The notes under the pieces were generated by a model. The model ran no database searches. It was not told where the DNA came from and saw only the letters and a program-made list of their open reading frames with translations. The position numbers and the translations under genes were made by a program. Below, in pieces: positions 3,649 through 55,281 of a stretch of DNA of 64,000 nt; the stretch's first letter is position 1, and every line of letters starts with the position of its first letter. Source of the stretch: Escherichia phage AV125; sequence record OR352955.1; one strand, written 5' to 3'.

Positions 3649-3993
3649 ATGCAAGAGAGTAAAAATGTTCCGTTGAGTAGTTTACGTCTAATGAAGTTTT
3701 ACAAAGCTTGGCTTGCTGGTGAGGTAGAAGGTCACACAACGAGTGGTTTGTGCATATGTTTGATTAAGTATGTAGAGGGAACATACCCTGATGAACTGTT
3801 ACCTCGTCTACAACAAGAGATGAAATCACAGTTTATTGGTGCAGGATTGGATTACAATTTCCCGTTTAATGAAGGTGGTTATGAGGAATACACCTTTGAA
3901 CATAAAAAACATATTTGCCATAAAAACAAACATCGTATACAATGGGTGCTAGATAGAATTCAAGATTATGAAGGAGAGAAAGATGACAAATAG
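3649..3993 (+). CDS. family A small protein (paralog 1 of 7)
   Basis: 114 aa; motifs FYKAWLAG, TSGLCICL, DYNFPFN, RIQWVLDRI shared with six other ORFs. Confidence 0.7.
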   Translation: MQESKNVPLSSLRLMKFYKAWLAGEVEGHTTSGLCICLIKYVEGTYPDELLPRLQQEMKSQFIGAGLDYNFPFNEGGYEEYTFEHKKHICHKNKHRIQWVLDRIQDYEGEKDDK

Positions 3994-4351
3994 TATTCCG
4001 TTGAGCAGTGCAACATTGCTTCGCTTCTATAAAGCATGGATTGCCAACTATCCTGCAATGAATCGCACAACGAGTGGCTTATGTGGTTGTCTGGTAGACT
4101 ATGTAGATGATTTTGTTGGTGATACACCTAGAGAAGAAGATAGAAAATGGCGTGATCATTTGTTGGACCGTTTGAAATATGAAATGAGGAAACAATTTAC
4201 ATGTGCAGGACTGGACTACAATCTTCCGTTCAATGCAGATTGCATGGATTACCTTTCAGAGTGTATAAACTTGGCGTGTCATACCAACACGTTACGTCTT
4301 CAGTGGGTGAAAGATCGGATTGAAGATGCAAATAATGCTTGCATTGAATAA
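3983..4351 (+). CDS. family A small protein (paralog 2 of 7)
   Basis: Start moved to ATG 3983 (RBS GGAGAG); FYKAWIAN, TSGLCGCL, DYNLPFN, RLQWVKDRI. Confidence 0.7.
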   Translation: MTNSIPLSSATLLRFYKAWIANYPAMNRTTSGLCGCLVDYVDDFVGDTPREEDRKWRDHLLDRLKYEMRKQFTCAGLDYNLPFNADCMDYLSECINLACHTNTLRLQWVKDRIEDANNACIE

Positions 4352-20844: not shown

Positions 20845-21075
20845 GTGTTAAATAAAATCGAAGAAGGTTGTATGGCATTTTTGGTAGATAACCCGTTTCC
20901 CTTTATGGTTAAGGTCCATGTAGGAGAGTATTTAGGTTATGACGAATGGGATTGTAGTATCAATAGTGAAATGCACCACTACCAACCAACAATACTTAAG
21001 ACGGATCAAATGGCGCGTATTACAGTAGAGGATGAATTGATCATTGAGTTATACGAGAGAGCACTACCCAAGTAA
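20845..21075 (+). CDS. hypothetical protein
   Basis: 76 aa, GTG start after RBS AGGAGG. Confidence 0.5.
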   Translation: MLNKIEEGCMAFLVDNPFPFMVKVHVGEYLGYDEWDCSINSEMHHYQPTILKTDQMARITVEDELIIELYERALPK

Positions 21076-21120
21076 GCTAGAACCCACCTAAATCGAACAG
21101 AGACGCTCTAAAATAGAAAA

Positions 21121-21149
21121 GGCACCCACTTGGGTGCCTTTGTTTTATT
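21121..21149. terminator. bidirectional terminator between convergent gene blocks
   Basis: GGCACCC-actt-GGGTGCC hairpin flanked by A-run upstream and T-run downstream; sits where the plus-strand block meets the minus-strand block. Confidence 0.7.
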
Positions 21150-21417: not shown

Positions 21418-21437
21418 TTTATTCTCCTAATAAGAAA

Positions 21438-21451
21438 GGGGCCGAAGCCCC
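21438..21451 (-). repeat. intergenic UUCG-tetraloop hairpin (GGGGC-UUCG-GCCCC on transcript)
   Basis: GGGGCCGAAGCCCC; same element recurs at 33531 and 39698. Confidence 0.6.
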
Positions 21452-21460
21452 TTGAGTGGT

Positions 21461-22276
21461 TTATTTGTTTAAGTGGTCTTCGACCATTTTAATGAAACCT
21501 TCATTGCTGAAGGCTGTTGCAGCTTTTTCTCGGTAAACAAAAACTCCACGATCTTCATAGAGAAGTGTTTCTTCGTAATTAACTCCAGGGTTAACTACAA
21601 CCATTTTTGTACCCATACTAAGTGCAGGAAATAATTCCCAATTAAAATTGATAACTTGGTTTGAACATCCTACTACTACAACCAAATCTTGCATGGTCAA
21701 AGTATCGAACAAGTGAGCCATATCTGCATACAAAGGTGCAGCCTCACCAAAAAATACAACATTAGGCTTCACCCAGTTATAATCATCTATGTTTATACTA
21801 TTGTAACCAATATCTACCAGTGTTTTGTAATCTCCAGGATGCATACGGTAAACTACTTCAGGAAGATATCCGTGTACGTGAATAACAGAATCTCTGTCTA
21901 CACCTGCTCGCTCTAGCAGATCATCAACGTTTGTTGTCAAGTTTACTATTTGGTTAGGATATTCCTTAAACCACTTTGCTATTTGAATATGTGCAGCATT
22001 AGGTTGTACATCTTTAAGCTCAACACGTCTTTTGTTATAAAATTCGTGTGTTTTGGCATACAAATCCATACCGTTCTCGTCTACACCACCGACCACTGGA
22101 AGATCTGGAGATGTTCTAACACGATAACCTGCTTGGAAAGCTCCAATATCGCAGACCTCTTCTAAATCATATTCTTCCCATAAAGCACGACCACTATCTG
22201 TGTCTGTTCTAAATGTTCGAATCCCACTGTCTGCACTTAAACCTGCACCGCTTACAAAAATCACTCGTCTTGGCAT
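21461..22276 (-). CDS. Sir2-family (sirtuin-like) protein
   Basis: VIFVSGAGLSADSGIRTFR (sirtuin GAGIS-x-GIP-x-FR motif), HVHGYL, VVFFGE, VVVGCSNQV; lacks the Cys4 zinc module. Confidence 0.65.
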   Translation of the reverse strand: MPRRVIFVSGAGLSADSGIRTFRTDTDSGRALWEEYDLEEVCDIGAFQAGYRVRTSPDLPVVGGVDENGMDLYAKTHEFYNKRRVELKDVQPNAAHIQIAKWFKEYPNQIVNLTTNVDDLLERAGVDRDSVIHVHGYLPEVVYRMHPGDYKTLVDIGYNSINIDDYNWVKPNVVFFGEAAPLYADMAHLFDTLTMQDLVVVVGCSNQVINFNWELFPALSMGTKMVVVNPGVNYEETLLYEDRGVFVYREKAATAFSNEGFIKMVEDHLNK

Positions 22277-22746
22277 TCTTCCTCCTCAAATGGATCATAA
22301 GAATTGTACTCGTAAGTATCATCTTCTGAAAATTCTACTTCGAAATAAATATCAAACTCTGCAAACAGACGTAGGATGTTAGACATGCTGTAATAATTAT
22401 CGTAGGCAGATTCAGCTTCATAGTAAACATAAAGCCAATGGTTAGCCTTATCATCTTCCAAATATTTCCCGTCTGCATACGCATAGTCTGCATATGCTTT
22501 ACCTGCATCTTCCACAAGAGAACGATCAAGCAGAGTAGGAAATGGTTTCTCTTTTTCTTTTAGTTTGCTCACTAACCAATGTGCAATATCATTCCATTCT
22601 GCATCCATACCACTAAAGCAACTTGCTTCTTCTCCAAAAGAAGCTTCTCCTAAATCGCCACTAATACGAATAACATTAGATGAATTATAGCCACACGTTT
22701 CACAATCAGAGTAACTATTATGCACATTGACATTTACTTGAAACAT
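22261..22746 (-). CDS. acidic hypothetical protein
   Basis: 161-aa ORF, Asp/Glu/Tyr-rich. Confidence 0.5.
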   Translation of the reverse strand: MFQVNVNVHNSYSDCETCGYNSSNVIRISGDLGEASFGEEASCFSGMDAEWNDIAHWLVSKLKEKEKPFPTLLDRSLVEDAGKAYADYAYADGKYLEDDKANHWLYVYYEAESAYDNYYSMSNILRLFAEFDIYFEVEFSEDDTYEYNSYDPFEEEECQDE

Positions 22747-22766
22747 ATTCCCTCCTATAAAAGAAA

Positions 22767-22787
22767 AGCCCCCTGAAACAGGAGGCT
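22767..22787 (-). repeat. intergenic stem-loop
   Basis: AGCCCCCTG-aaa-CAGGAGGCT, one mismatch. Confidence 0.4.
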
Positions 22788-22804
22788 TTGTTCAGATGTT
22801 GGCA

Positions 22805-23458
22805 CTATACCAGACTTTGTAGGTATTTGTCAAGGGCTTCTTGATCGCCTTGACAAACATAGCAACGGAAGTCTTGAGCCGAAGGTTGTTTATTTTCATC
22901 CCAGTCCCAATAAACATTACCCTTATAACGTGAACCAGGAAACTCAAAAGAGGCTGTATGTGTAATGTATCCTGGGCCACCAGTGAAATCACAGAATGAG
23001 AATTGGGGGTATGCCGCCTTTACTGCCTCAATAAACCAAGCTTTACGATCTAAAGCTTCATTGATGCTATACGCATGTCTCTCCATTTCTTCCCACGTTT
23101 TCCAGACACTTCTCTCATCAGGAGAAAAGACAAGCCATTCTGGAAGGTATAGAGTGTCATAGTAATCATCATATTCGATCTCGGAGGCGCACGAAGCTGA
23201 CTCCTCCAGTTTTGAGTAATCAAAAGCAGAATATACCCACCAACCATCTTCCAGTAACGCTTTGATAGGGACGAAGCCTTTATCAGCATATTGATCGAAT
23301 TGTTTGACACGGTGGCTTGTGCAGTCTTCAAACTCACATTCTAAACGATATGCACCTTTTCGACGAGCCTCAAGACCGTGTGTACTGAAAATAACAACAC
23401 TTCCTTCACCATCATTACGATCTACTTGATAAGCAACCACTGGTTTTGAATTTGACAT
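22805..23458 (-). CDS. hypothetical protein
   Basis: 217-aa ORF. Confidence 0.55.
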   Translation of the reverse strand: MSNSKPVVAYQVDRNDGEGSVVIFSTHGLEARRKGAYRLECEFEDCTSHRVKQFDQYADKGFVPIKALLEDGWWVYSAFDYSKLEESASCASEIEYDDYYDTLYLPEWLVFSPDERSVWKTWEEMERHAYSINEALDRKAWFIEAVKAAYPQFSFCDFTGGPGYITHTASFEFPGSRYKGNVYWDWDENKQPSAQDFRCYVCQGDQEALDKYLQSLV

Positions 23459-24141
23459 TATTTCTCCTTATCTAGAAGATTGTTAGACAAAAACACTGCA
23501 CGAGCAAAACCACGTGCGGTTAGTGATCTAAGTTGTTTTGTTTTTGCACTAGCTCCACCTAAGCTTTTCCAACCCCAGAAGCAGCCTATATGATCTACTG
23601 GTTTCTTCACTGGTTGAACAAAACCATTGCCGTGCCAAATACAAGTTTTCTTTGTATACCCATCACGGGTAGGCATTTTAGGATGAAAGCTTCCTTCCTC
23701 TTCAAACAAATACCCACCATACTCATAAGGATCAAAGTAAAAATCGGGTTTACGCCATAAGGTTGAAAGTTTACCTACTGGGTTCTCAATCATCCAAGGA
23801 ACATTATATTTGTTACCCAAAGCTTCCACTACACGAATATTAGCTAAAGCTTCATCCAATTCCTCTGTGCTGCGTTCGTGTTTGCTACCACTACCTGCTA
23901 ACATAGTGCAAGGTGGAAATCCAAAAATAATATCGGGTTTAGGTATCCCATGATCTTCAGGGTTGAATGTAGAATCTATCCAGGTATTCACATAGGTTAT
24001 GTTTGGGTGCTCCATCCTAACCTCGTATTTACCGTGATCCCCTTCATCAGCGTTTACACAAAAACACTTGTGACCTGCTTCGGCATAACGTAACACCATG
24101 ATCCCAGATCCGTCAAACATAGACAAAACTGTTTTACTCAT
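23458..24141 (-). CDS. compact cytosine-C5 methyltransferase-like protein
   Basis: Start at ATG 24141 (RBS GGAGGGG); LSMFDGSGIM (motif I FxGxG), GFPPCTMLAGSG (motif IV Pro-Cys), MIENPVG (motif VI ENV-like); only about 227 aa so little room for a target-recognition domain. Confidence 0.5.
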   Translation of the reverse strand: MSKTVLSMFDGSGIMVLRYAEAGHKCFCVNADEGDHGKYEVRMEHPNITYVNTWIDSTFNPEDHGIPKPDIIFGFPPCTMLAGSGSKHERSTEELDEALANIRVVEALGNKYNVPWMIENPVGKLSTLWRKPDFYFDPYEYGGYLFEEEGSFHPKMPTRDGYTKKTCIWHGNGFVQPVKKPVDHIGCFWGWKSLGGASAKTKQLRSLTARGFARAVFLSNNLLDKEK

Positions 24142-24547
24142 TACCCCTCCATTCAAGACAAGCCATAACTTTACGCCAATCACTTTCTGTAAGAAAAATC
24201 TCGTTTGCTTTCTTCCACAAATCTAAATCGTGAAGGGTTGGAATACGATATGTTAGTTCACAGAATCTATGCTCTTCTTCTGTAATATAACCAAAATGCA
24301 GAGCCACATCGTGAAACCAACACCAACCATGCATCTCTCGAACAACATGGTCATGCTGAGACATTGTTTTATGCCGTAAACCTAACCAACAAGGAACAGA
24401 TATTTTAGTAGTCTTTAATCTGTGATCAACAGTATTAGAGTATTCAATAATAGCTGTCAGTTTCAATCGTGCTTTTTCTAAATCCTCATGGGTCACTTTG
24501 AAATAACTTTCTGAAAGATATCCACACATATTAATAACCTCCTTCAA
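24134..24547 (-). CDS. hypothetical protein
   Basis: 137-aa ORF, Cys/His/Trp-rich. Confidence 0.5.
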   Translation of the reverse strand: MKEVINMCGYLSESYFKVTHEDLEKARLKLTAIIEYSNTVDHRLKTTKISVPCWLGLRHKTMSQHDHVVREMHGWCWFHDVALHFGYITEEEHRFCELTYRIPTLHDLDLWKKANEIFLTESDWRKVMACLEWRGNE

Positions 24548-25472
24548 AAGGCTTAACTACATGTTGATTAGCTTTAAAACGTTCAACATAGTCATTTTCG
24601 CCCATGTTTTCATATAGCTTAGTAACAACATAAAAGTTTTCCCAAGCATATTCCCTAAACCAACCACTAGTGATGGATGTGCAGACTTTAGATAAAGCCA
24701 TTATAAAACTTTGCTTAGGGGTTGGACCTCCAATCTCTTCACCGAAAGGAATTTGTGAACGTTCCAAAGCCAAAACACACGCTTCTTCATAAACACCTAA
24801 CAGGCGCACATGTTTTGGTTGAGCAAAAAACTTTTCTTTGCTGGTCATAACTTCACTTCCATCTTTCATATAAGATTTATATGCTGGAGCATCCATTAAC
24901 GCGATTGCTTCATGGATAGAATCATGATCATAAACATACGGAACCTCGTCACCTTTAAAGAAGTCTTTACTTTTTACGTTTAAGTTCGGATGAGAGTAAG
25001 TGTATGTTTCTTTCTCACGCAACTCATAAATACTCTTAAGATTTTCTGGGATCTTTGCGCCCAGTGACCGCATGAAATGAATATCTTTCATAGTTTTAAA
25101 GAAATGAGGACTATCCTTTTTAAAACGATGACTCATTTTAAGAAGGTAGAGCACATCTAAAGGAGCAACAACATGTCCAGCGTAAGTTCGACGAACATCA
25201 TCAGAATCTTCACAATAACTAATCAAAGCTTCTGTGCTATCTCCTTGAGAAGCAATATCGTATTCCAAATGTGCACCAGTTATCATTTTGACATGGCCTT
25301 TGTTTCCTTTACGTTCTACAAGTTCAACAAACTCCTCTTGAGAGAACATTTTTGATAATTCTTCCCACTCTTGTTCTGTACACAGGTAATCTAAATCTAC
25401 ACAAGGGCGATACAAGTCTTTTCCCATGTCCATAGCATGAATTTGCAATGCACGGCTACCAATTAACACCAT
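24531..25472 (-). CDS. hypothetical protein, possible Pol-beta-superfamily nucleotidyltransferase
   Basis: 313 aa; N-terminal LIGSRALQIH...CVDLDYL resembles the GS...DxD nucleotidyltransferase signature but spacing is atypical. Confidence 0.5.
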   Translation of the reverse strand: MVLIGSRALQIHAMDMGKDLYRPCVDLDYLCTEQEWEELSKMFSQEEFVELVERKGNKGHVKMITGAHLEYDIASQGDSTEALISYCEDSDDVRRTYAGHVVAPLDVLYLLKMSHRFKKDSPHFFKTMKDIHFMRSLGAKIPENLKSIYELREKETYTYSHPNLNVKSKDFFKGDEVPYVYDHDSIHEAIALMDAPAYKSYMKDGSEVMTSKEKFFAQPKHVRLLGVYEEACVLALERSQIPFGEEIGGPTPKQSFIMALSKVCTSITSGWFREYAWENFYVVTKLYENMGENDYVERFKANQHVVKPFEGGY

Positions 25473-25562: not shown

Positions 25563-25835
25563 CTAACACATTGAGGAAGAAGAGATCCAAACACCTCTTG
25601 TGGTTAAACCATTTTCATCCAACTCTACACCATAATCTTCACAAATGAAATCAATATAGTGATCTGCGGCTGGCGTTCCTGTAGGGTAATAAGTTTCTCC
25701 GTTACCGTAGTCACCTATCCAAGCTTGTTCCTGAAACTGTTCACAAAGTTCTTCAATTTCCTTACGAAACTTTCTTTGTGCTTGTTCCATCTCTTTAACT
25801 TTCTTTTTTATCAGCAGTTCGCCTTCAGACTCCAC
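25563..25835 (-). CDS. family C small acidic protein (paralog 1 of 3)
   Basis: 90 aa ending ...RGVWISSSSMC. Confidence 0.55.
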   Translation of the reverse strand: MESEGELLIKKKVKEMEQAQRKFRKEIEELCEQFQEQAWIGDYGNGETYYPTGTPAADHYIDFICEDYGVELDENGLTTRGVWISSSSMC

Positions 25836-25844
25836 AATCTCTCC

Positions 25845-26063
25845 TTAACAGCTACTACTGTGCCAAACGCCTTGAGAATTAACGACGAAACCATCATCAC
25901 CTTCACCATAACAAGAAGAGGATTGCCAATCTTCAAAACAGATTGCGTCATCTTCTAAACTAAGACCAAAACCAGCATCTTCAGCTTCTTTTGTAAGTTC
26001 GTCCACTAAAGCCATAATAGCTTGGGCTTTTTCAGTTAATTCTTCAACATTACGATAACTCAT
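25845..26063 (-). CDS. family C small acidic protein (paralog 2 of 3)
   Basis: Start at ATG 26063 (TAATG overlap with upstream stop); ends ...QGVWHSSSC. Confidence 0.55.
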   Translation of the reverse strand: MSYRNVEELTEKAQAIMALVDELTKEAEDAGFGLSLEDDAICFEDWQSSSCYGEGDDGFVVNSQGVWHSSSC

Positions 26064-26371
26064 TAGTATTTCTCCTCTGGTTGGAAAACGGAACGACAGG
26101 CCCACATAGAAGCTTCTTTCAACTTAGTCTTTGCTATTGAAATTTGGTCAAGGCGGGTGGATATATTGGTAGACTCTTCCAAATCTTCACAATCGTCCAG
26201 TTCAGCCCACAATTCAGACATTAGAGCATCAAAGATTAATCCTAATCGAACTTCAGCATCTTTAATAGCATTCACTTTACCAATTTTGTCATCGGTATGC
26301 GGTTTATAACCTTTGATATCTTCGATTCCCACTTTACCTCCTATTAACAACTTAAAGAAGATGGATGCCAA
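26063..26371 (-). CDS. hypothetical protein
   Basis: 102-aa ORF. Confidence 0.5.
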   Translation of the reverse strand: MASIFFKLLIGGKVGIEDIKGYKPHTDDKIGKVNAIKDAEVRLGLIFDALMSELWAELDDCEDLEESTNISTRLDQISIAKTKLKEASMWACRSVFQPEEKY

Positions 26372-26541
26372 TTTGTTCCAGTGTTCTCATTTTCGTCTTC
26401 TGGATCATAATAACCACCCATCCCATATTCAGGGGAGAAACGGAAACCTTTACCAGTCTCATCTGCTAACTGCTCTGCTTCCGCTAAAGCCTCATAAGCT
26501 GCTTTTACGGCTTCTTCTACTGTTTTAAACTTGGTCGTCAT
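26344..26541 (-). CDS. family C small acidic protein (paralog 3 of 3)
   Basis: 65 aa ending ...TNWHPSSLSC. Confidence 0.5.
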   Translation of the reverse strand: MTTKFKTVEEAVKAAYEALAEAEQLADETGKGFRFSPEYGMGGYYDPEDENENTGTNWHPSSLSC

Positions 26542-26815: not shown

Positions 26816-27306
26816 AAAACCTCCTCAATCTTGTAGTTTGACTCCATCTCCAACACATTTCCACGAACGTCTCTCCGAAGAAAGGCATAAGCTTTATTAG
26901 GTATTGTAGACTCATATTTAACCATATCTGGCACAGCAAAAGATACTACTACTCCTGCTGGGCTTCTGTCAAGAGCCTTATTAATATTTCTAAGGATATC
27001 GTTAGCCAAGATTTCTGCCAATTCTCCAAGAACAGTTTCTGTTATATCTTTATATCCCATTAAGTATTTGTTGATATCTTTCATCTCCGTATTGTTCAGA
27101 GTATAGTCCAAAGGATAGAAATTCAAAGCGGAGTCACTTTTATGTGTCCACATGAAATGCACCCGATCCGAGCAGAATCGTAACCCTCTTTGAAGAATAT
27201 CTTCTACAACAGGCAGAATTTCTTTTGTCACATCATTAACCATGTTGTAATCTAAGATTTCTGCCAAGTTTGTTCTTTGTTCACCACGTTTACGTTTAGG
27301 AATCAC
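26794..27306 (-). CDS. hypothetical protein
   Basis: 170-aa ORF. Confidence 0.55.
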   Translation of the reverse strand: MIPKRKRGEQRTNLAEILDYNMVNDVTKEILPVVEDILQRGLRFCSDRVHFMWTHKSDSALNFYPLDYTLNNTEMKDINKYLMGYKDITETVLGELAEILANDILRNINKALDRSPAGVVVSFAVPDMVKYESTIPNKAYAFLRRDVRGNVLEMESNYKIEEVLWQSSDQ

Positions 27307-27901
27307 TTGTTATTGCCCTCATTACCAAAGGTCGTAGAAAATCGTAAATCTCTTGTTTTGTTTTCCCACGAATGTTTAAACAAGGAACATTATTGGCTTT
27401 AGCTATCTTCCAAGCCGTAGCTGTTCCACCTTTTGCATCTCCATGTTTATCAGTATTAGCACAAGCCAACAAGAAACATGATGGAGCAGGATTCTCCAAA
27501 TCTCTACCTAACACTTGATGCACATTACGTTGGTGCAATTTTCTAGCACCCTGCTTAAGCTTTTCATAGGCTGGGTGAACATCTTTGATCCATTGCACAG
27601 AGATAGCATAGTTCATTGTATCTGGTTTTGCAAGAACAATAACATCCCCTGGAATCTGATTACCTTTGAAATTTTCCCAAGGAACATAAATCTCCTTGTT
27701 AGTAGGATTTTCAGACTCTTGGACACCTGTTTCAAAAGCAGAATCACTACCCTCTGCCTTCCCAGACCTTAATTTAAACCCAAGGTTTGAAAGCCATTTC
27801 CCTATGCCTACCATCAAAGCCCACTCTTCTTCGGATATGTCTCTACTTCCAACTCCCGTATAGAACAGTTCTGCCATAATCACCTCAACAAGTAATTTCA
27901 A
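27296..27901 (-). CDS. hypothetical protein, possible Rossmann-like (SLOG/DprA-like) fold
   Basis: 201 aa; YTGVGSR...SGKAEGSDSA pattern is only weakly diagnostic. Confidence 0.5.
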   Translation of the reverse strand: MKLLVEVIMAELFYTGVGSRDISEEEWALMVGIGKWLSNLGFKLRSGKAEGSDSAFETGVQESENPTNKEIYVPWENFKGNQIPGDVIVLAKPDTMNYAISVQWIKDVHPAYEKLKQGARKLHQRNVHQVLGRDLENPAPSCFLLACANTDKHGDAKGGTATAWKIAKANNVPCLNIRGKTKQEIYDFLRPLVMRAITSDS

Positions 27902-30303: not shown

Positions 30304-30539
30304 TAATCTTCCCAGTCATTGCCCTCGGTAGAGTGAACTAAAGCTCGCACGATACCACCGTAATCTACTGCCTGATTTGCAGCATGTTCGGCATAAACTT
30401 CAATGGCTTTTTTGAAGAAAAGAGCAGTAGCTGCTTCAATATTATCCATTTCGCCATCTACGTCAGTAGAAAGTGAAAGGTTGAGGCTTTCATCTACTTC
30501 ATCAAAATCAATAGCCACTGTCATAATTAGTTTACCCAT
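30303..30539 (-). CDS. hypothetical protein
   Basis: 78-aa acidic ORF. Confidence 0.5.
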   Translation of the reverse strand: MGKLIMTVAIDFDEVDESLNLSLSTDVDGEMDNIEAATALFFKKAIEVYAEHAANQAVDYGGIVRALVHSTEGNDWED

Positions 30540-30551
30540 AGTTCACACTCC

Positions 30552-31061
30552 TTAAACAAAATAAAATGGTTGAGAGAGGCCCAAACGATTCTTTGGGTCG
30601 TATACATACCAAGCGTATGCTGTCTTATCTGTTCCACCTGCAACAAACGAAGGCCGTTCTGAAAGGACTATAAGGTTTGTTGGTGGATTCTTTTGATGGA
30701 ACTCTCGTCGTTTCTTTGACTCCAAGAAGCCCAACCGAAGAAGATAAATACAAACATCTGCCTCTTTTAAGCTCTTTTCCAAGAACTCCATTGCTAACTT
30801 AAATGGAGGATTTGTGATTATAATGTCGGGACGATTTTCCCATTCATGACTAAAATAATCTTTACCTTCTTCAAGTTCGCAATATTCTGAACCTTCAGGA
30901 AAATGGCGATAAATCGCTTCAGCTTCACCTCTGCAAGGTTCTGCAAAAACCCAACCTTCTTCCTTTAGATTTTTGAAATCTATAACACTAAACAAACTAT
31001 TGATTGCTTTTTGCGGTGTCGGATAATAATCGCTCGTTGGGCGATCATAATCTAATGCCAT
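30552..31061 (-). CDS. small DNA N6-adenine methyltransferase-like protein (phage Dam-like)
   Basis: DYYPTP near N-terminus, IIITNPPF (NPPF catalytic motif), 169 aa. Confidence 0.55.
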   Translation of the reverse strand: MALDYDRPTSDYYPTPQKAINSLFSVIDFKNLKEEGWVFAEPCRGEAEAIYRHFPEGSEYCELEEGKDYFSHEWENRPDIIITNPPFKLAMEFLEKSLKEADVCIYLLRLGFLESKKRREFHQKNPPTNLIVLSERPSFVAGGTDKTAYAWYVYDPKNRLGLSQPFYFV

Positions 31062-31479
31062 CTAAAATCTCCTCTTTTGTAATATTATCCAACTCTTTAA
31101 AGGATGAAATCTCGTTTAATAATCCTATTTGATCAGCTTCTAGCGGATAAGTGTTTTTATCTGTTTTTCTAGACAGAATATCTTCAACAAACTTATCAAT
31201 AGCCAAAGAAGAATCATAAAATTTTAAAAGTTGGTAATCCATAGGAGATATTTTGTCATCTCTTAGAAATATTTCTAACATGTTTTCAGGAGTATCGTGG
31301 TTTAGTTTATGTTCACCAAAAATATTAACTTCGTAAACATCTTTGCCAAACCAACGTTTCTTCTTTTCAACAGTATAGGTTTTTGCCACCAGACCATCTA
31401 AACAGTTTCTTGCCCTCTTACATGTTTGACGGTAAGAGTGGATAGCGCCTTCAACAAACTTAGCAGGAACTTGTAACAT
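31045..31479 (-). CDS. hypothetical protein
   Basis: 144-aa ORF. Confidence 0.5.
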   Translation of the reverse strand: MLQVPAKFVEGAIHSYRQTCKRARNCLDGLVAKTYTVEKKKRWFGKDVYEVNIFGEHKLNHDTPENMLEIFLRDDKISPMDYQLLKFYDSSLAIDKFVEDILSRKTDKNTYPLEADQIGLLNEISSFKELDNITKEEILDGIRL

Positions 31480-31503
31480 TATTAATCTCCTATGTTTAAG
31501 AAA

Positions 31504-49767: not shown

Positions 49768-50406
49768 TTAAAAACGGGTATTTAAAAAATAGTTAGACAT
49801 ACCTAACTCTAATGCTTCGAGATTGTAAGCTTCAGCCGCTTCCAACTCTGTAGTATATCTTCCTAAATATTTTGTTTTCTTATCGAAACAAATAAAAGCC
49901 AGCCATTTATTTTTAGCTTTGTCATAGGAGACTCCCCTAAAATTTGAATACTTGCTTTTTGTTTTACCTCTGTTTCGAATCTGTTCACTTTGTGTTGTCC
50001 ATCTGCAATTCTCTTTACTGTAACCAAGATCAACATTTACACGATCTAAACTATGGTTTTTAGGTCGCTTACCCATGTCTTTCAAGAAAGTGTTAAATGA
50101 TTTCTTCCAATCATCACAAACAGTAATTCCTCGTCCACCGTATCTATCATAGTGCTCACAATTTTCATTATAACACCTTTGTAGCATATTACGATAACTT
50201 TCGTAAGTATATCGTTCCTTATTAGATAGGCCATCGCCCTTACTACAATACATGCATTTCGGACTCTTTGATCTTTTCAGACTGGACAATGTTCTTAAAC
50301 TTTCTTTTTGGCATACCAAGCATAAACATACAAAAGTAGTTTGATTGTCAATCTTGGTTTCAGAAAGACGGGAGATTCTAAAATCTCCCTTTGTTGAACC
50401 TATCAT
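49768..50406 (-). CDS. HNH homing endonuclease with AP2 domain
   Basis: SLDRVNVDLGYSKENCRWTTQSEQIRNR (HNH), FRGVSYDKAKNKWLAFI...KYLGRYTTELEAAEAYN (AP2). Confidence 0.75.
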   Translation of the reverse strand: MIGSTKGDFRISRLSETKIDNQTTFVCLCLVCQKESLRTLSSLKRSKSPKCMYCSKGDGLSNKERYTYESYRNMLQRCYNENCEHYDRYGGRGITVCDDWKKSFNTFLKDMGKRPKNHSLDRVNVDLGYSKENCRWTTQSEQIRNRGKTKSKYSNFRGVSYDKAKNKWLAFICFDKKTKYLGRYTTELEAAEAYNLEALELGMSNYFLNTRF

Positions 50407-51128
50407 TTTTTGATAATAGCTGCAATGTTGGGTTTAATGAAACCTGACCACTTCATGATCTTGCCTTTATCATCAAAGAACACATACACTTTCTGTTTTT
50501 CATTATAAACAGCATGAACACCAGTGTATGCTCCTTCTGGACGATTGGCATTTCGTTCTTCAATTGCAGTGCATTCTTGTGCAATGGCTGAATCGATATC
50601 TGAAGTTTTCCAAGTTTTCAGCAACTGTTGTTTAGTTGGATACTTGGAATCATTACTTTTCAATACCTCTTTAATAACTTTCTTTTCTGGATATTTTGAA
50701 CGGATTAGAGTGTCACGAGACATACGCATAATACCAGCAGCCATTAGTGCCATTTGAACTGGCTCTGTAAATGTTTGTTCCAAAGCATCAAAATCAGTAT
50801 ACACAGTTGGAGTAAAAACATCGCCTACAGCATAGTCCAAGAAATTCATCGTATGTTCTTCACCAAAGAACATGTAGGTCAGATAACTGGATACTACAAA
50901 AATATCCGCTGCTGCATCCAAGAGTTCTACATGATCGTTTACTTTCGCGGCTGTTTCATACTCTTTAAGCTCTTCACGAACGAATCCGATTTGGGACATA
51001 AATAGCTCTTGAGTGAATTCAGGTTGTTCACCACCTCGTGCTTTAGCATTCCAATCAATCACGTGCTTCGCTGCATTTTTGAAAAATTCAGTATCGAACT
51101 TAATATCTTTAAAAAAATTCTCGATCAT
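50403..51128 (-). CDS. MazG-like all-alpha nucleoside triphosphate pyrophosphohydrolase (dCTPase/dUTPase-like)
   Basis: REELKEYETAAKVNDHVELLDAAADIFVV acidic EExxE...D helix pair. Confidence 0.5.
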   Translation of the reverse strand: MIENFFKDIKFDTEFFKNAAKHVIDWNAKARGGEQPEFTQELFMSQIGFVREELKEYETAAKVNDHVELLDAAADIFVVSSYLTYMFFGEEHTMNFLDYAVGDVFTPTVYTDFDALEQTFTEPVQMALMAAGIMRMSRDTLIRSKYPEKKVIKEVLKSNDSKYPTKQQLLKTWKTSDIDSAIAQECTAIEERNANRPEGAYTGVHAVYNEKQKVYVFFDDKGKIMKWSGFIKPNIAAIIKK

Positions 51129-51137
51129 TATAACTCC

Positions 51138-51320
51138 TTATTTAAAATAGCTTTCTAGAAAGTTGCTAATATTTACTACAGTCTCACCCATGTAAATTCC
51201 TGCGAAACCGAAAACAAGCATACGTGGAATATTGAAATACCATTTATCCGCTGGAAAAGATGCCAGAATTACAATAGCAATTGCTATCAGCATCATAAGA
51301 ATTGTTGCTAAAATTATCAT
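51138..51320 (-). CDS. small membrane protein
   Basis: Start at ATG 51320; MIILATILMMLIAIAIVILASF is one predicted TM segment. Confidence 0.4.
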   Translation of the reverse strand: MIILATILMMLIAIAIVILASFPADKWYFNIPRMLVFGFAGIYMGETVVNISNFLESYFK

Positions 51321-51511
51321 AAAAATGCCTCCAGGTATTTTGAACAATGATAAGCTAAGAAACAAGAAACTACCGCATACCCAACTCCAGACATACATGA
51401 ATCAATCACAACACATACGGTTCTTTTCTTTGAATTCTTAGGAAAGTTTTCCGAAGCAGTCATACAATAAAAAGAAAGCACACTGAAAACGATTAAAATG
51501 GCTAAGAACAT
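51317..51511 (-). CDS. small membrane protein
   Basis: MFLAILIVFSVLSFYCM hydrophobic N-terminus; 64 aa. Confidence 0.4.
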   Translation of the reverse strand: MFLAILIVFSVLSFYCMTASENFPKNSKKRTVCVVIDSCMSGVGYAVVSCFLAYHCSKYLEAFL

Positions 51512-51520
51512 TTTTCCTCC

Positions 51521-52648
51521 TTACTCTGCTGGTTCCCAAGTGCCTGGGATCATTTCTCGAATACGAACACCAACAGGTTTTGTTGGAATACCTTCATCTG
51601 AAAATTCTTCATACTCTATTTCAACGAACTGATTAATCAAGGTAGAAGCATTCTCTGCTTTACGATAATTGATAGTCTCATGAGCATCTTTACGCATTAA
51701 GAATTCGACTACTTTACCATTTTCCATCTCACCTGTCAACACTCCATCGCCATTTTTATCGCTTTTTGAATTTGTTACTTTAACTTCAAGGGTATGGCGA
51801 GGCTTACGTTTAATAACATCGTAAGAACGTTTATCAAATTCGTAAACTCCGTGAGCATTACGATATACTACACCTTCAGCTTTCTCAAGTAAAGCTTTTT
51901 CATAGAAAGCATCAAACTGTTCTTGGTTTTCAATATACTCTGTATGAACTACACAAATAAGCTCGTCAAGACCATAATCTTCAACTACTGCCTTAAGAGC
52001 AGCAAGAGCATCAACACGTTTTTCAAACGGTAGACCTGGAACTGGAATATCGTATACGTAATAATTCAGCAAAGGTGTATTTGCATTATGCTTCTTCCAG
52101 GCACTGTTAATTTGTTGCAGACTAAGGACACCTAACCCAGCAAACACTTCACCATCAAGAGGATGACCAACAACTTCACTAATAAAGTTTGGAATACCTT
52201 TCCAATGAGGTGGCAGGTTATACACTTCCCCAGCTTTTGATAAACACTCCCCTTTCATGTTAATCATAGAACGTAACCCGTTCAGTTTGTATTGTGCATA
52301 ACCAGGGAACACAACCCTTTCAGGATAATCTTTATAATCCTGGCATTTCATTGGTGTGGAAGGAACATGGTTTTCAGCTTCTTCTTTTGTTTTATAATAG
52401 CCATTCTTTAACTGTTTTGTCCATTTGGCAAAAGCTTCAAGTTCAGCTTGTTCTTCCGGTGTTGTTTCATTGGAACGACCAATGTTTTTTGCTTCTGCTG
52501 TATAAGATTTTTCTGTGATCTTTCCACCTACTCTTCCATGAGCTACAGTAACAACTGCACCATCTGTATACACTGTCCACTGTTTAAGTTTTCCTTTTGA
52601 ATCTTTACCATACAGCGTTTGATTTGTTTGTTGCATTAGTCCTCCCAT
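51521..52648 (-). CDS. ATP-dependent DNA ligase-like nucleotidyltransferase
   Basis: Motif I YKLNGLR (KxDGxR with Asn for Asp), motif III LDGEVF, motif IV EGVVYR, motif V VIKRKP. Confidence 0.65.
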   Translation of the reverse strand: MGGLMQQTNQTLYGKDSKGKLKQWTVYTDGAVVTVAHGRVGGKITEKSYTAEAKNIGRSNETTPEEQAELEAFAKWTKQLKNGYYKTKEEAENHVPSTPMKCQDYKDYPERVVFPGYAQYKLNGLRSMINMKGECLSKAGEVYNLPPHWKGIPNFISEVVGHPLDGEVFAGLGVLSLQQINSAWKKHNANTPLLNYYVYDIPVPGLPFEKRVDALAALKAVVEDYGLDELICVVHTEYIENQEQFDAFYEKALLEKAEGVVYRNAHGVYEFDKRSYDVIKRKPRHTLEVKVTNSKSDKNGDGVLTGEMENGKVVEFLMRKDAHETINYRKAENASTLINQFVEIEYEEFSDEGIPTKPVGVRIREMIPGTWEPAE

Positions 52649-52857
52649 TTAAAAACTGAAATTTTCAATCTGTTACACACTTCATCCAAATCTGCGTCGA
52701 GTAACGTTGTAGATGTTGCCAACATGTAATCAATGCTTGTGAAACCTTGCCCTTTGGCATAGTCAAGCATATCTTCATACATATCTTCAAGATCACCGTC
52801 ATCAAAAGTAGCTAGAAAATCCTCGTCTCCGCTACGAACATAAAATGCAGTACTCAT
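52636..52857 (-). CDS. hypothetical protein
   Basis: 73-aa acidic ORF. Confidence 0.45.
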   Translation of the reverse strand: MSTAFYVRSGDEDFLATFDDGDLEDMYEDMLDYAKGQGFTSIDYMLATSTTLLDADLDEVCNRLKISVFKWED

Positions 52858-53045
52858 TCTTCTTCATCCCAAGATTCAAAAGCACAACAATCATCGGTTT
52901 CTATAATACCGACACGTCCGCAGGTATTGCAAGTGATTTTATCCCCGTAGAATAAATAATTTTTATCACCCTCTGTGTTTACAGTTATGTCATTACTACC
53001 ACAAGGGCAAGTCAGCCAACCAACAACAACGATATCTTTTTTCAT
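52854..53045 (-). CDS. small zinc-ribbon protein
   Basis: CPCG ... CNTCG. Confidence 0.45.
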   Translation of the reverse strand: MKKDIVVVGWLTCPCGSNDITVNTEGDKNYLFYGDKITCNTCGRVGIIETDDCCAFESWDEEE

Positions 53046-53054
53046 AATCCCTCC

Positions 53055-53381
53055 TTAAGCGTTAAGTTCGTTGTTGAGTTCGTAAATCTCTTCTTGAAGA
53101 GCATCAATCTCTTCCTCCAAACGGGAGATCTCTTCTTTTAGATATACCATTTCAGATTCTTTCTCTTCTAATTCATTTTCAAATTTTACTTTATTTGCCT
53201 CATTTTCATAATGCAGTTCAGCGTAATCATCACGCATTTGTTCAATAAGATGAATCAGAGACAAGATATAATTGTCTCCCGTTTCATCACGCCACTCTTC
53301 ACCGTGACGGAGAACGGTAATTCGTCCAGTATCTTCATCTAAAATTGTCTCATATTTACGATCATCTGTATAAATCTGCAT
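53055..53381 (-). CDS. coiled-coil protein
   Basis: C-terminal heptad-rich EEISRLEEEIDALQEEIYEL. Confidence 0.5.
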   Translation of the reverse strand: MQIYTDDRKYETILDEDTGRITVLRHGEEWRDETGDNYILSLIHLIEQMRDDYAELHYENEANKVKFENELEEKESEMVYLKEEISRLEEEIDALQEEIYELNNELNA

Positions 53382-53390
53382 TATTTCTCC

Positions 53391-53795
53391 TTATTGAAGT
53401 TTAAGTGAACCACGAAGACGTTTCTCTTGCTGATCACGGATATATTGTGGAACCTCGTGAATTGAATCATTACCGTGCCTATTTTCAACAATTAAAGAGA
53501 TAACTTGATAACCAAACTCTTCAGCAAGAGCTAGATAAGGTTTAAGTTCTTTCTCTGTGGTTGAAGTATTAGAAACAATAATCTTGTTAAGATTAGATGC
53601 CATAGCATCACGAACAATATCCTGACACCATGCGTGTGCTTTACCTACATTTTCTGGCTTCCAATCGTAAACACCACTCTCTGTGTAATGATATTGATCT
53701 GCCTCACAGATAGGCCAATAACCTTCAGAAATAATTTCTGCTACTGTAGATTTACCAGCACCTGAAACGCCACGTAAAATGATAAGTTGTTTCAT
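53391..53795 (-). CDS. polynucleotide kinase-like P-loop kinase (kinase domain only)
   Basis: MKQLIILRGVSGAGKSTVAEII and IIVSNTSTTEKELKPYLALAEEFGY parallel T4 Pnk [22 protein letters not shown] and VIISDTNLNPERR. Confidence 0.65.
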   Translation of the reverse strand: MKQLIILRGVSGAGKSTVAEIISEGYWPICEADQYHYTESGVYDWKPENVGKAHAWCQDIVRDAMASNLNKIIVSNTSTTEKELKPYLALAEEFGYQVISLIVENRHGNDSIHEVPQYIRDQQEKRLRGSLKLQ

Positions 53796-54728
53796 TTATC
53801 CTCCAAAAAAGTTTTCGATTTTTTCACGTCGCTCTTGCTGATTTAAAGCAGCCCATTGAGTCTTCGTAAAATTATTTCGAATCCATTCTAACAAAGCGTA
53901 ATATTCTTCGTCAACCATTTGTTTGGCATTTTTTGGATTATCCCAAATCAGATCCCACTTTTTATCTCCACCGCGCATAAGAAACTTCTTAGTAAGGTAG
54001 TGTGGTGATTTAATTTTTAAAAGTAAGTTGAACGGATAGTTTGTTTCACGAACTACAAACCCTTCGTGTTTACAATGTTTAGACATTTCAACAACATCTG
54101 AAAACTTAACCATTGGATGAACTTCAGGACGCTTAAATTTGGTGACAGAAGCAATTCCATCAAGAGCACCTTCAGGTAACATAAAACTTGTCCCATCAGG
54201 ATTTTGAATTCTGGCACCAATTAAGTATGCACCTGGTTCTTCTTCGACAATATGCGGATCAGAAGGATCACAGATTTCAAAAAGGAAAGTTGCTTTTGCA
54301 CTCTCTGTCCATTTGATGAAATGTTCTATGTCATCACACTCTGAAACAATATGATTCTTTGCAATACTTGCAAAATCTGATTCAAGGCTTCCTGTTGTCG
54401 ATACAATAAGTTGACCTTTATATACACCTACAGAGGCCATAAAACCATTTACTTTACGAACCACATCTACAAGTTCATCCAATGGTAGATCTGTGCCATT
54501 CTCAAAACGATTAAAAATCTTAGTGAAAGGCCAAATAACAACATTGTCATCAGCATCAACAACGATTCCGCGACATTCTAGAAGACGAGAATCAATGCTC
54601 CATAAGTTATCCCAGAAAACTTTGTTCTTATACTTAAGAACAGATAGACCAGAATACTCTCCTTCTTTATATGTTTTCTTATGAACTAAACCTTTTTCAA
54701 CCAAATCGTCGCAATTAAATTTAGTCAC
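53796..54728 (-). CDS. RNA ligase-like nucleotidyltransferase
   Basis: VRKVNGFMASV (KxNG motif I as in tRNA-ligase type adenylyltransferases), HEGFVVRE (motif IV), LLLKIKSP (motif V). Confidence 0.5.
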   Translation of the reverse strand: MTKFNCDDLVEKGLVHKKTYKEGEYSGLSVLKYKNKVFWDNLWSIDSRLLECRGIVVDADDNVVIWPFTKIFNRFENGTDLPLDELVDVVRKVNGFMASVGVYKGQLIVSTTGSLESDFASIAKNHIVSECDDIEHFIKWTESAKATFLFEICDPSDPHIVEEEPGAYLIGARIQNPDGTSFMLPEGALDGIASVTKFKRPEVHPMVKFSDVVEMSKHCKHEGFVVRETNYPFNLLLKIKSPHYLTKKFLMRGGDKKWDLIWDNPKNAKQMVDEEYYALLEWIRNNFTKTQWAALNQQERREKIENFFGG

Positions 54729-54729
54729 A

Positions 54730-55281
54730 TTACTCTCCTTTGATTATTTTGTGATGGTCTACAGTCACGATATCTCGTTTACTCATCATAGAAATTATCT
54801 CATCAAAATGCAAGATTTTTCCGTGTGCATCCCAACCCACATCTAACATTTTACCATAAGCTTCATCAGGGAAAGATCCGTGGGAATGCCCGTGTAGCAT
54901 GATTGATCCACGACCTTGTTTATTCCAGGAGGCCATAGGGTAATGACTTAAGACGAAGAACAGCTTCTGATATTTCACTTCGTCATAATACACCACTTCA
55001 CCATACTCTGCAAGCACTTCTCGGTGTTTGCTGTAGTCATGGTTCCCAACACAGTAGGTGATATCTCCTTGGAGACGAGAAGCAATTTTACGGGTATCTT
55101 CTTCAGTTCCGAAACAGAAGTCGCCCAAATGCCACATCTTAACACCAGGAGTAGTAGCACATTTGTTCCATGCTTCGATCAAGGCTTCTGTCATGTGGTC
55201 CATATCTTCCCACGGACGATATTCAGGAGCAAACTCTCGAATACGTTTATGCATAAAATGCAAATCGCTTGTAATAAACAT
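54730..55281 (-). CDS. calcineurin-like metallophosphoesterase
   Basis: SDLHF, GDFCFG, GNHD, HGHSH metal-binding motifs. Confidence 0.75.
   Translation of the reverse strand: MFITSDLHFMHKRIREFAPEYRPWEDMDHMTEALIEAWNKCATTPGVKMWHLGDFCFGTEEDTRKIASRLQGDITYCVGNHDYSKHREVLAEYGEVVYYDEVKYQKLFFVLSHYPMASWNKQGRGSIMLHGHSHGSFPDEAYGKMLDVGWDAHGKILHFDEIISMMSKRDIVTVDHHKIIKGE

Follow-up and report, generated by a model that had tools for sequence, protein, structure and literature searches.

We analysed a 64,000-nucleotide (nt) stretch of Escherichia phage AV125 (sequence record OR352955.1; hereafter the window), in which the minus strand between 21461 and 25472 carries genes for a Sir2-family protein, a 227-amino-acid (aa) protein with C5-methyltransferase motifs, and a 313-aa protein with a nucleotidyltransferase signature. 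An earlier interpretation of this region from its letters alone (the sequence-only reading) had described the three as a cluster. Comparison with related phage loci suggests that they are three independent accessory genes of an early/middle-gene block, namely the Sir2 gene, the methyltransferase gene, and the transferase gene with a set of small upstream partners, and do not constitute one system; we give this reading a probability of about 70%. The novel and interesting part of the region is the module formed by the transferase and these small proteins, called tail proteins here after their invariant C-terminus, while the Sir2 protein and the methyltransferase belong to known phage families. 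The genes of these transferase partners (25563-26541) lie just outside the coordinates covered by the sequence-only reading, which missed them; its observation was confirmed and its interpretation partly supported.

The 5-kb stretch around the trio is 99.4-99.5% identical to Phapecoctavirus isolates (vB_EcoM_DE16, ESCO13, anhysbys, and phAPEC8 derivatives), and the source phage is a phAPEC8-like Phapecoctavirus, an E. coli myovirus of approximately 150 kb. All three open reading frames (ORFs) were confirmed on the minus strand at the coordinates in the table below and are annotated genes in the 99.4-99.5% identical phages. Co-localisation, defined as occurrence within 10 kb, was scored in 80 transferase-, 69 Sir2-, and 80 methyltransferase-anchored loci. 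The transferase was accompanied by the methyltransferase in 9/80 loci and by Sir2 in 8/80; Sir2-anchored loci contained the transferase in 8 of the 69 and the methyltransferase in 9 of the 69, and methyltransferase-anchored loci, mostly from 45-51-kb siphoviruses, contained the transferase in 4/80 and Sir2 in 5/80. Every co-localised locus was a phAPEC8/rV5-like contig of ~140-153 kb or a fragment of one. Since the trio occurs together only in this lineage, it is not a conserved system, and the proposed cluster is lineage-specific synteny.

Clustering of the transferase neighbours disclosed that the most conserved were small proteins encoded immediately upstream on the same strand. Common to these tail proteins are a helix at the N-terminus, the stretch 'ADE-G-x-x-F', in many cases the motif 'YG-x-G-x-TYYP', and an invariant C-terminus of the form G-x-W-x-S-S-S-x-x-C or W-x-S-S-S-C. 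In 70/80 transferase loci the 3 kb upstream of the enzyme gene contained between one and five tail genes of the same orientation, compared with 2/137 loci without the enzyme (Fisher p=3e-43), and at least one was within 8 kb in 77/80. In a motif-free test, 25% of same-strand ORFs up to 2.5 kb upstream of the transferase ended in Cys, against 2.2% elsewhere (p=2e-108). The tail motif was present in exactly 3 of the 1086 ORFs of the window, all directly upstream of the transferase gene and all matching phrog_899. A search with tail protein 1 minus its last eight residues against 1.84 billion representative proteins returned eight small homologues, 8/8 of which bore the tail. Start-stop overlaps of 4-8 nt between tail and enzyme genes were observed in several lineages, and in phage RB69 the products of ORF136c, ORF137c, and the split pair ORF139c+138c are tail proteins, the module spanning ORF134c-139c. 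From this genetic association we infer that the tail proteins, and not Sir2 or the methyltransferase, are the functional partners of the transferase. No description of the pairing of transferase and tail proteins was found in the literature.

Variant forms of the tail were also seen. In RB69 (L083, locus 3872-4178), ORF139c reads '...YGSGRTYYPKGE...' and stops, and it is followed by ORF138c, which reads '...GAWVSSPALC'; the two look like one tail gene split in two, and the ORF138c tail carries a Ser-to-Pro change. Tail protein 2 (25845-26063) contains an internal second copy of the motif, FEDWQSSSCYGEG, fused directly to the YG-x-G motif. The two-copy form is also found in T4-like phages, for example DWLNSSCYGEE...IWQPSSC, and its recurrence hints that the family originated by duplication of a unit.

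A gene unrelated to the tail family, encoding an Acb2/Tad1-hairpin protein (26063-26332), is inserted in the array of tail genes; its product matched Pfam PF24729 with E=1.2e-19 and 70.7 bits against a cut-off of 27. Proteins of this family are cyclic-nucleotide sponges that counter the cyclic-oligonucleotide-based anti-phage signalling system (CBASS) and Thoeris. Homologues were located no more than 10 kb from the transferase in 25 T4-like loci and were absent from the closest relatives, L003-L006.

The 313-aa protein matched Pfam DUF7277 (residues 1-87, 52.1 bits) and DUF7275 (residues 107-297, 254 bits), with a cut-off of 27 for each. Its G5-S6...D26-x-D28...E70 signature was invariant in 40 homologues. 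In an alignment of 84 sequences, which takes in three distant homologues, G5, S6, D26, and D28 were kept in 83/84 (the 84th having an alignment gap), and position 70 was Glu or Asp in 84/84. Across the same 84 sequences H183, D184, H187, E229, E230, E237, and R238 were invariant and K262 was altered once, to Arg, which suggests that the C-terminal part is probably catalytic or substrate-binding too. All members of the tail-associated branch have Cys264, and the three distant homologues without tail genes have Ile in its place; as this correlation amounts to a single evolutionary event, it serves as a lead only. MenT1 was the best structural match by two methods, the alignment covering nearly all of MenT1, and K112-x2-H115-R116 and D130, as possible counterparts of the C-terminal motifs III and IV, fall in the structurally aligned helices. 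Single-sequence and family-profile searches revealed no sequence relative among solved structures, and Pfam AbiEii/DUF1814 gave no match. The structural comparison supports a MenT1-like nucleotidyltransferase with a second, equally conserved C-terminal domain, in agreement with the sequence-only reading, which had taken a weak GS...DxD signature to indicate a possible nucleotidyltransferase.

Members of the transferase family are present in 734 phage records, among them RB69 ORF134c and proteins of other T4-like, Pseudomonas Otagovirus, Acinetobacter, Aeromonas, and jumbo phages; a search of 185,579 species genomes of bacteria and archaea found the family only on 8 metagenome-assembled contigs. 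A literature search returned no paper mentioning DUF7275, DUF7277, PF23940, PF23942, or RB69ORF134c. More distant homologues with the GS...DxD and the His/Asp/Glu set, and with no tail genes, are gp17 of Gordonia phage Bachita (L242), 1.2 kb from a tRNA gene array, and gp205 of Streptomyces phage Blueeyedbeauty (L243), which has an RNA ligase gene 1.3 kb upstream of it. Small genes beside the distant tail-less homologues show a weak mutual resemblance (E ~0.03-0.06), at which a shared second family is unproven.

Known enzymes of comparable design share parts of this arrangement. MenT1/MenA1 and AbiEii (DUF1814) have in common with the window module the hG[GS]...DxD...E catalytic motif, the fold, and one or more small partner genes beside the enzyme gene. 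In contrast to them, the window transferase shows no sequence-level match, carries an extra, highly conserved domain of ~140 residues, belongs to a family found only in lytic phages, and has 1-5 paralogous partners with the invariant W-x-S-S-S-x-x-C tail. In the HEPN-MNT type VII toxin-antitoxin systems, a minimal nucleotidyltransferase (MNT) AMPylates its partner protein. By analogy, a Pol-beta-fold enzyme is genetically paired in the window with a small protein, a potential target of nucleotidylation, whereas a HEPN partner is absent, the enzyme belongs to another nucleotidyltransferase branch, and the candidate acceptor would be a Ser/Cys tail and not a Tyr. Ho et al. (2022) described MNT-like nucleotidyltransferases of phages Av05 and BCP1 that synthesise cyclic dinucleotides, which are likewise phage Pol-beta nucleotidyltransferases in anti-defence neighbourhoods that include DNA methyltransferases. 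Membership in that group was rejected: the motif spacing differs, with 19 residues between GS and DxD in the window transferase, a regular expression for the signature GS-x-AY[GAN]T-x4-SDxD found no match in the window, and the large extra domain sets the protein apart. RlaP, the RNA-ligase-associated Pol-beta transferase, was rejected as well, there being no Pfam match and neighbours other than RNA ligases in 78-79/80 loci.

The retention of one invariant tail by several paralogues that otherwise diverge is more suggestive of a site for recognition or modification, and the transferase would bind and chemically modify, or be regulated by, the tail of the upstream small proteins. We tentatively propose, as a possibility that must be considered somewhat doubtful, that the DUF7277/DUF7275 enzyme and the tandem tail proteins form an unrecognised, phage-exclusive protein-modification module, in which the MenT-like enzyme, via its second domain and Cys264, would recognise and covalently alter the tail. 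Possible chemistries are nucleotidylation of Ser, elimination followed by addition of Cys, or thiol exchange. If this is true, T4-like, rV5-like, jumbo, and Pseudomonas/Acinetobacter phages would use modified small effectors early in infection. Over 700 sequenced phages, the model phage RB69 among them, encode this MenT-like enzyme, which is essentially never seen in sequenced bacteria and is genetically tied to arrays of tiny proteins. The enzyme and its partners constitute a directly testable pair in well-studied phages, which could reveal either a new protein modification or a new control of a tRNA-directed enzyme.

The Sir2 protein matched Pfam SIR2 (PF02146) with E=1.9e-22 and 80.5 bits against a cut-off of 24, and phrog_2162 with E=2.8e-104; its closest solved relative was E. 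coli CobB (1s5p; E=7.6e-19, ~35% identity). It shares the motifs GAGLS-x3-GIRTFR, TTNVD, HVHG, and NVVFFGE, unchanged, with 21 phage relatives, and an alignment of 22 sequences including CobB revealed invariant residues G10 A11 G12 S14, F22 R23, Y80 R83, N116 D118, H135 G136, and F176 E178. Y80/R83 (YxxR) aligns with the FYNARR stretch of CobB; the Y-x-x-R pair of class III sirtuins binds succinyl or malonyl carboxylates. None of the 21 phage members has a Cys at the columns of the CobB zinc cysteines. Both the Sir2 fold with its motifs and the lack of a Cys4 zinc module, as described in the sequence-only reading, were borne out. A place among the Sir2 domains of bacterial defence systems, which it had mentioned, was not: the PADLOC models of defence-type nicotinamide adenine dinucleotide (NAD) hydrolases, or NADases (ThsA, DSR, SIR2-HerA), gave just a weak PDC-S65 match (E=0.017). 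The best NCBIfam score, 106.3 bits, was far below the cut-off of 243 for assignment as a CobB equivalog. On sequence grounds we place the protein, as an intact and NAD+-dependent enzyme, in a phage-specific clade of class III (CobB/SIRT5-like) sirtuins without zinc cysteines; it is closest to CobB and not of the defence-system NADase type.

Features shared with E. coli CobB and human SIRT5 include the GAGxS Rossmann NAD+ site, the FR loop, the Asn/Asp ribose contacts, the catalytic His, FGE, and Y-x-x-R. The phage clade differs from these enzymes in lacking all four zinc Cys and in having a phage-specific 'TDT-SG-ALW' insertion, and the window Sir2 carries an additional insertion of ~30 residues at 47-77. 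It is 52-61% identical over its full length to Mydovirus and T5-like phage members. Iyer, Burroughs, Anantharaman and Aravind (2022; PMC9503650) linked a phage sirtuin clade (rV5, Mydo, SP15, and Serratia BF types) to RNA repair and predicted that it removes RNA 2'-phosphates, as KptA does. Judged by these similarities, the Sir2 described here belongs to that clade, of which the activity is predicted only; in the window, however, it adjoins unrelated genes. A literature search on phage sirtuins found no experiments; its sole hits were the comparative study of 2022 and a paper on the genome of a Vibrio phage.

The genomic contexts reported by Iyer et al. were reproduced here in other lineages. 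A block of MazG, DNA ligase, P-loop ATPase, RNA ligase, and phosphoesterase genes was located no more than 10 kb from Sir2 in 11-13 of the 69 Sir2-anchored loci, and a HAD phosphatase gene followed Sir2 in 28 T5-like loci of that set. Sir2 would most likely move ADP-ribose from NAD+ to an anionic group, and the best-supported target, held at slightly less than even odds, may be a 2'-phosphate on cleaved tRNA/RNA, the removal of which would ready the RNA for the phage RNA ligase; the main alternative would be taking succinyl-type acyl groups off lysine. The protein lends itself well to a test of the published prediction that a sirtuin can substitute for KptA/Tpt1 in RNA repair.

Elsewhere in the window, on the minus strand at 50406-55281, genes for a MazG-like pyrophosphatase, an ATP-dependent DNA ligase, a P-loop ATPase, an RNA ligase, and a calcineurin-like phosphoesterase are contiguous, the same set that neighbours phage Sir2 in Mydo/PVP-SE1-like phages. 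The published Atd1 is a MazG-like protein from Pectobacterium phage PcCB7V, and a separate paper records Atd1 in Phapecoctavirus. In two IMG/VR contigs, L084 and L085 (97 and 150 kb), Sir2 is 97% identical to that of the window in protein and 92% in DNA, with flanking genes just 23-67% identical and with both the methyltransferase and the transferase absent; they represent a recombination mosaic, Sir2 having been transferred as a single-gene cassette.

The 227-aa protein matched phrog_757 'DNA methyltransferase' with E=9.7e-85. Pfam DNA_methylase (PF00145) gave no match at E<=0.1, and a precomputed PF00145 match was present on 1 of 120 homologues listed. Thirty-six homologues, 215-245 aa in length, have FDGSG, PPC, and ENPVG without exception, and the invariant residues are D10-G-S-G13 (motif I), P76-x-C78 (motif IV), and E119-N-P121 (motif VI). 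A C5-methyltransferase fold was supported, with DNMT3 as the best structural match. Between motifs VIII and IX the target-recognition region has just ~35 residues and no large domain; the C-terminal half is highly conserved, and the family remains ~60% identical even between distant phages. These results agree with the sequence-only reading, both on motifs I, IV, and VI and on a length too short for a normal target-recognition domain, and profile and structure classification upheld its fold assignments for all three proteins. The methyltransferase family is present in 1487 phage records, and its annotation in the BASEL collection is 'Dcm-like C5 cytosine methyltransferase', the Bas10 member being 51% identical to the window protein.

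A characterised homologue supports the predicted activity. The 236-aa Dcm of Drexlerviridae phage K42 produces 5-methylcytosine (5mC) in the multicopy single-stranded DNA (msDNA) of retron Ec86, as detected by liquid chromatography-mass spectrometry, an effect that requires C82/E128/K175/K176; this methylation triggers the retron, and the authors locate the site in a CCWGG motif (bioRxiv 10.1101/2023.08.16.553469). The K42 residues correspond to C78/E119/K164/K165 in the window protein, and the Cys-to-Glu and Glu-to-Lys spacings of Bas10 (46 and 47) are those of K42 Dcm. Compact architecture, catalytic residues, and DNMT3-like fold are shared with the K42/BASEL enzymes, whereas two insertions found in the Drexlerviridae branch, one of 5 residues and one of 2-3, are absent from the window methyltransferase. 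Extrapolating from this homologue, the 227-aa protein is probably a compact, Dcm-like DNA methyltransferase of the cytosine-C5 type, the minimal target-recognition region of which resembles that of DNMT3. The enzyme would methylate phage DNA, probably at CCWGG, to evade restriction, and as a side effect retron Ec86 may be triggered. A family that both shields phage DNA and exposes the phage to retron Ec86 is relevant to the choice of phAPEC8-like phages for therapy. In addition, relatives annotate a second tiny 'DNA methyltransferase' of ~170 aa and an adjacent ~144-aa gene, located through anhysbys gp183/gp184 at ~30500-31500 on the minus strand of the window.

Several observations weigh against the independence of the three genes and against the partners and substrates proposed for them. 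In the phAPEC8/rV5-like lineage, the genes for the transferase, the 131-aa protein, the methyltransferase, and the 217-aa protein overlap and look co-transcribed, and the gene order is kept down to 54% transferase identity, so that a lineage-specific functional link may exist. In Vibrio phage phi-Grn1 (L244, 4866-7888), the distant tail-less transferase homologue phiGrn1_0152 is located 1.5 kb upstream of the Sir2 phiGrn1_0157, which is of the same Sir2 clade and likewise without zinc cysteines; this is the sole transferase-Sir2 adjacency seen outside the phAPEC8/rV5-like group and a second, independent case. Within the window, a terminator-like hairpin and a promoter-like site separate the tail genes from the transferase gene, and the RNA-repair block with its RNA ligase is ~29-33 kb away from Sir2, so that the adjacency described for the clade is absent here and support for the RNA-repair reading comes from other lineages. 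One NAD- or nucleotide-linked counter-defence system could account for the same-strand adjacency and overlapping frames from the transferase gene to the 217-aa gene, for an order retained in 8-9 related contigs, for the arrangement in phi-Grn1, and for an apparent anti-defence neighbourhood suggested by the nearby Acb2/Tad1-family sponge gene and the anti-restriction methyltransferase. Such a system is improbable, as the transferase, Sir2, and methyltransferase genes each occur without the other two in most loci (71/80, 61/69, and 76/80), Sir2 has its own promoter-like and terminator-like signals, and the mosaic relative with the 97%-identical Sir2 keeps Sir2 alone. With three independent accessory genes still preferred, the transferase could nevertheless be a MenT-type enzyme extending tRNA 3' ends, in host translation shut-off or in blocking or repairing particular tRNAs, with the small proteins acting as MenA1-like inhibitors or regulators and not as substrates. 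MenT1 being the best structural match by both methods points this way; so do the neighbours of the distant homologues, an RNA ligase gene in Blueeyedbeauty and a tRNA gene array in Bachita, and the size of the MenT1 antitoxin MenA1, which at 68 aa (PMC10435456) is likewise small and gives the transferase/tail module its resemblance to a MenAT pair. We nonetheless judge this unlikely, because one to five paralogous 'antitoxins' with an invariant eight-residue tail and diverging remainders resemble a recognition or modification site rather than a binding interface, the AbiEii/DUF1814 profile is not matched, and the extra 140-residue domain with its invariant His, Asp, Glu, and Cys is without a MenT counterpart.

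Substrate also divides the readings of the other two proteins. Instead of an RNA 2'-phosphotransferase, Sir2 could be a protein deacylase (a CobB/SIRT5-like desuccinylase or deacetylase) reprogramming host or phage proteins, or a plain NAD+ consumer, and this is quite possible, at odds well under even: CobB is its closest relative, neither the FGE motif for peptide binding nor Y-x-x-R has been lost, and no RNA-repair genes stand beside it in this phage. Against it, RNA-end-healing enzymes are conserved neighbours of the clade in two other lineages (PMC9503650), the score of 106 bits falls far short of the CobB equivalog cut-off, and loss of the zinc cysteines, which shape the peptide cleft in canonical sirtuins, suggests an altered substrate. 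For the methyltransferase, action on a nucleotide, RNA, or protein and not on DNA, suggested in part by the sequence-only reading, is most improbable, because a ~50%-identical homologue with matching motif spacing makes 5mC in DNA in vivo and the effect is abolished without the catalytic Cys and its partner residues. The very short target-recognition region might speak for such a substrate, but DNMT3 likewise reads DNA with a minimal one; the unusually strong conservation of the C-terminal half is compatible with one fixed DNA site common to the family. The missing Pfam DNA_methylase match remains on the side of a non-DNA substrate, and a DNA cytosine-C5 methyltransferase is the assignment we retain.

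The layout of the locus is summarised in the table, in which promoter-like and terminator-like signals are consensus matches only. The minus-strand run ends here, as the sequence-only reading had placed these genes at the 3' end of a minus-strand block: plus-strand genes stop at 21075 and are followed by the hairpin at 21118-21141. In the order of transcription, the small genes at 26541-25563, with the unrelated gene inserted, precede those of the 313-aa, 131-aa, 227-aa, 217-aa, 161-aa, Sir2, and 90-aa proteins. Four genes from 25472 to 22805 (transferase, 131-aa, methyltransferase, 217-aa) overlap one another by 1-17 nt, and the promoter-like/terminator-like pair at 22833-22765 divides this unit from the 161-aa/Sir2 unit. 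Only the phAPEC8/rV5-like lineage has the 217-aa gene in the interval from the methyltransferase gene to Sir2 (11 of the 69 Sir2-anchored loci), and the 161-aa protein adjoins Sir2 in just 5/69.

Table. Genes and putative transcription signals around the Sir2, methyltransferase, and transferase genes of the window.
Feature	Coordinates	Strand	Remarks
Bidirectional terminator-like hairpin	21118-21141		beyond plus-strand gene end at 21075
Terminator-like hairpin	21436..21453	-	directly 3' of Sir2 stop codon
Sir2, 271 aa	21461..22276	-	Pfam SIR2, phrog_2162, CobB relative
161-aa protein, phrog_9509	22261..22746	-	3' end overlaps Sir2 start by 16 nt
Terminator-like hairpin	22789-22765	-	consensus match
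Strong promoter-like site	22833-22804	-	consensus match, 11/12 matches, TG motif just upstream of -10 hexamer
217-aa protein, phrog_8514	22805..23458	-	between methyltransferase and Sir2
Predicted compact Dcm-like DNA cytosine-C5 methyltransferase, 227 aa from ATG	23458..24141	-	
131-aa protein, phrog_16551	24134..24529	-	overlaps both neighbours
Predicted MenT1-like nucleotidyltransferase, DUF7277+DUF7275, 313 aa	24531..25472	-	
Sigma-70-like promoter	25531-25503	-	upstream of transferase gene; consensus match
Terminator-like hairpin	25554-25537	-	upstream of transferase gene, directly followed by the sigma-70-like promoter; consensus match
Tail protein 1, phrog_899, 90 aa	25563..25835	-	C-terminus GVWISSSSMC
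Tail protein 2, phrog_899, 72 aa	25845..26063	-	C-terminus GVWHSSSC; internal DWQSSSC motif copy
Acb2/Tad1-hairpin family protein, 89 aa	26063..26332	-	inside tail-gene array; Pfam PF24729
Tail protein 3, phrog_899, 65 aa	26344..26541	-	C-terminus NWHPSSLSC

Further upstream on the minus strand, at 27296-27901, the window encodes a 201-aa protein that matches phrog_768 'DprA-like' and, below threshold, Pfam DNA_processg_A (E=0.068). From its GVGSRD...GKAEGSD motif we read this protein as SLOG-type (Rossmann-like nucleotide-binding), and its family is found near phage Sir2 in 14/69 loci.

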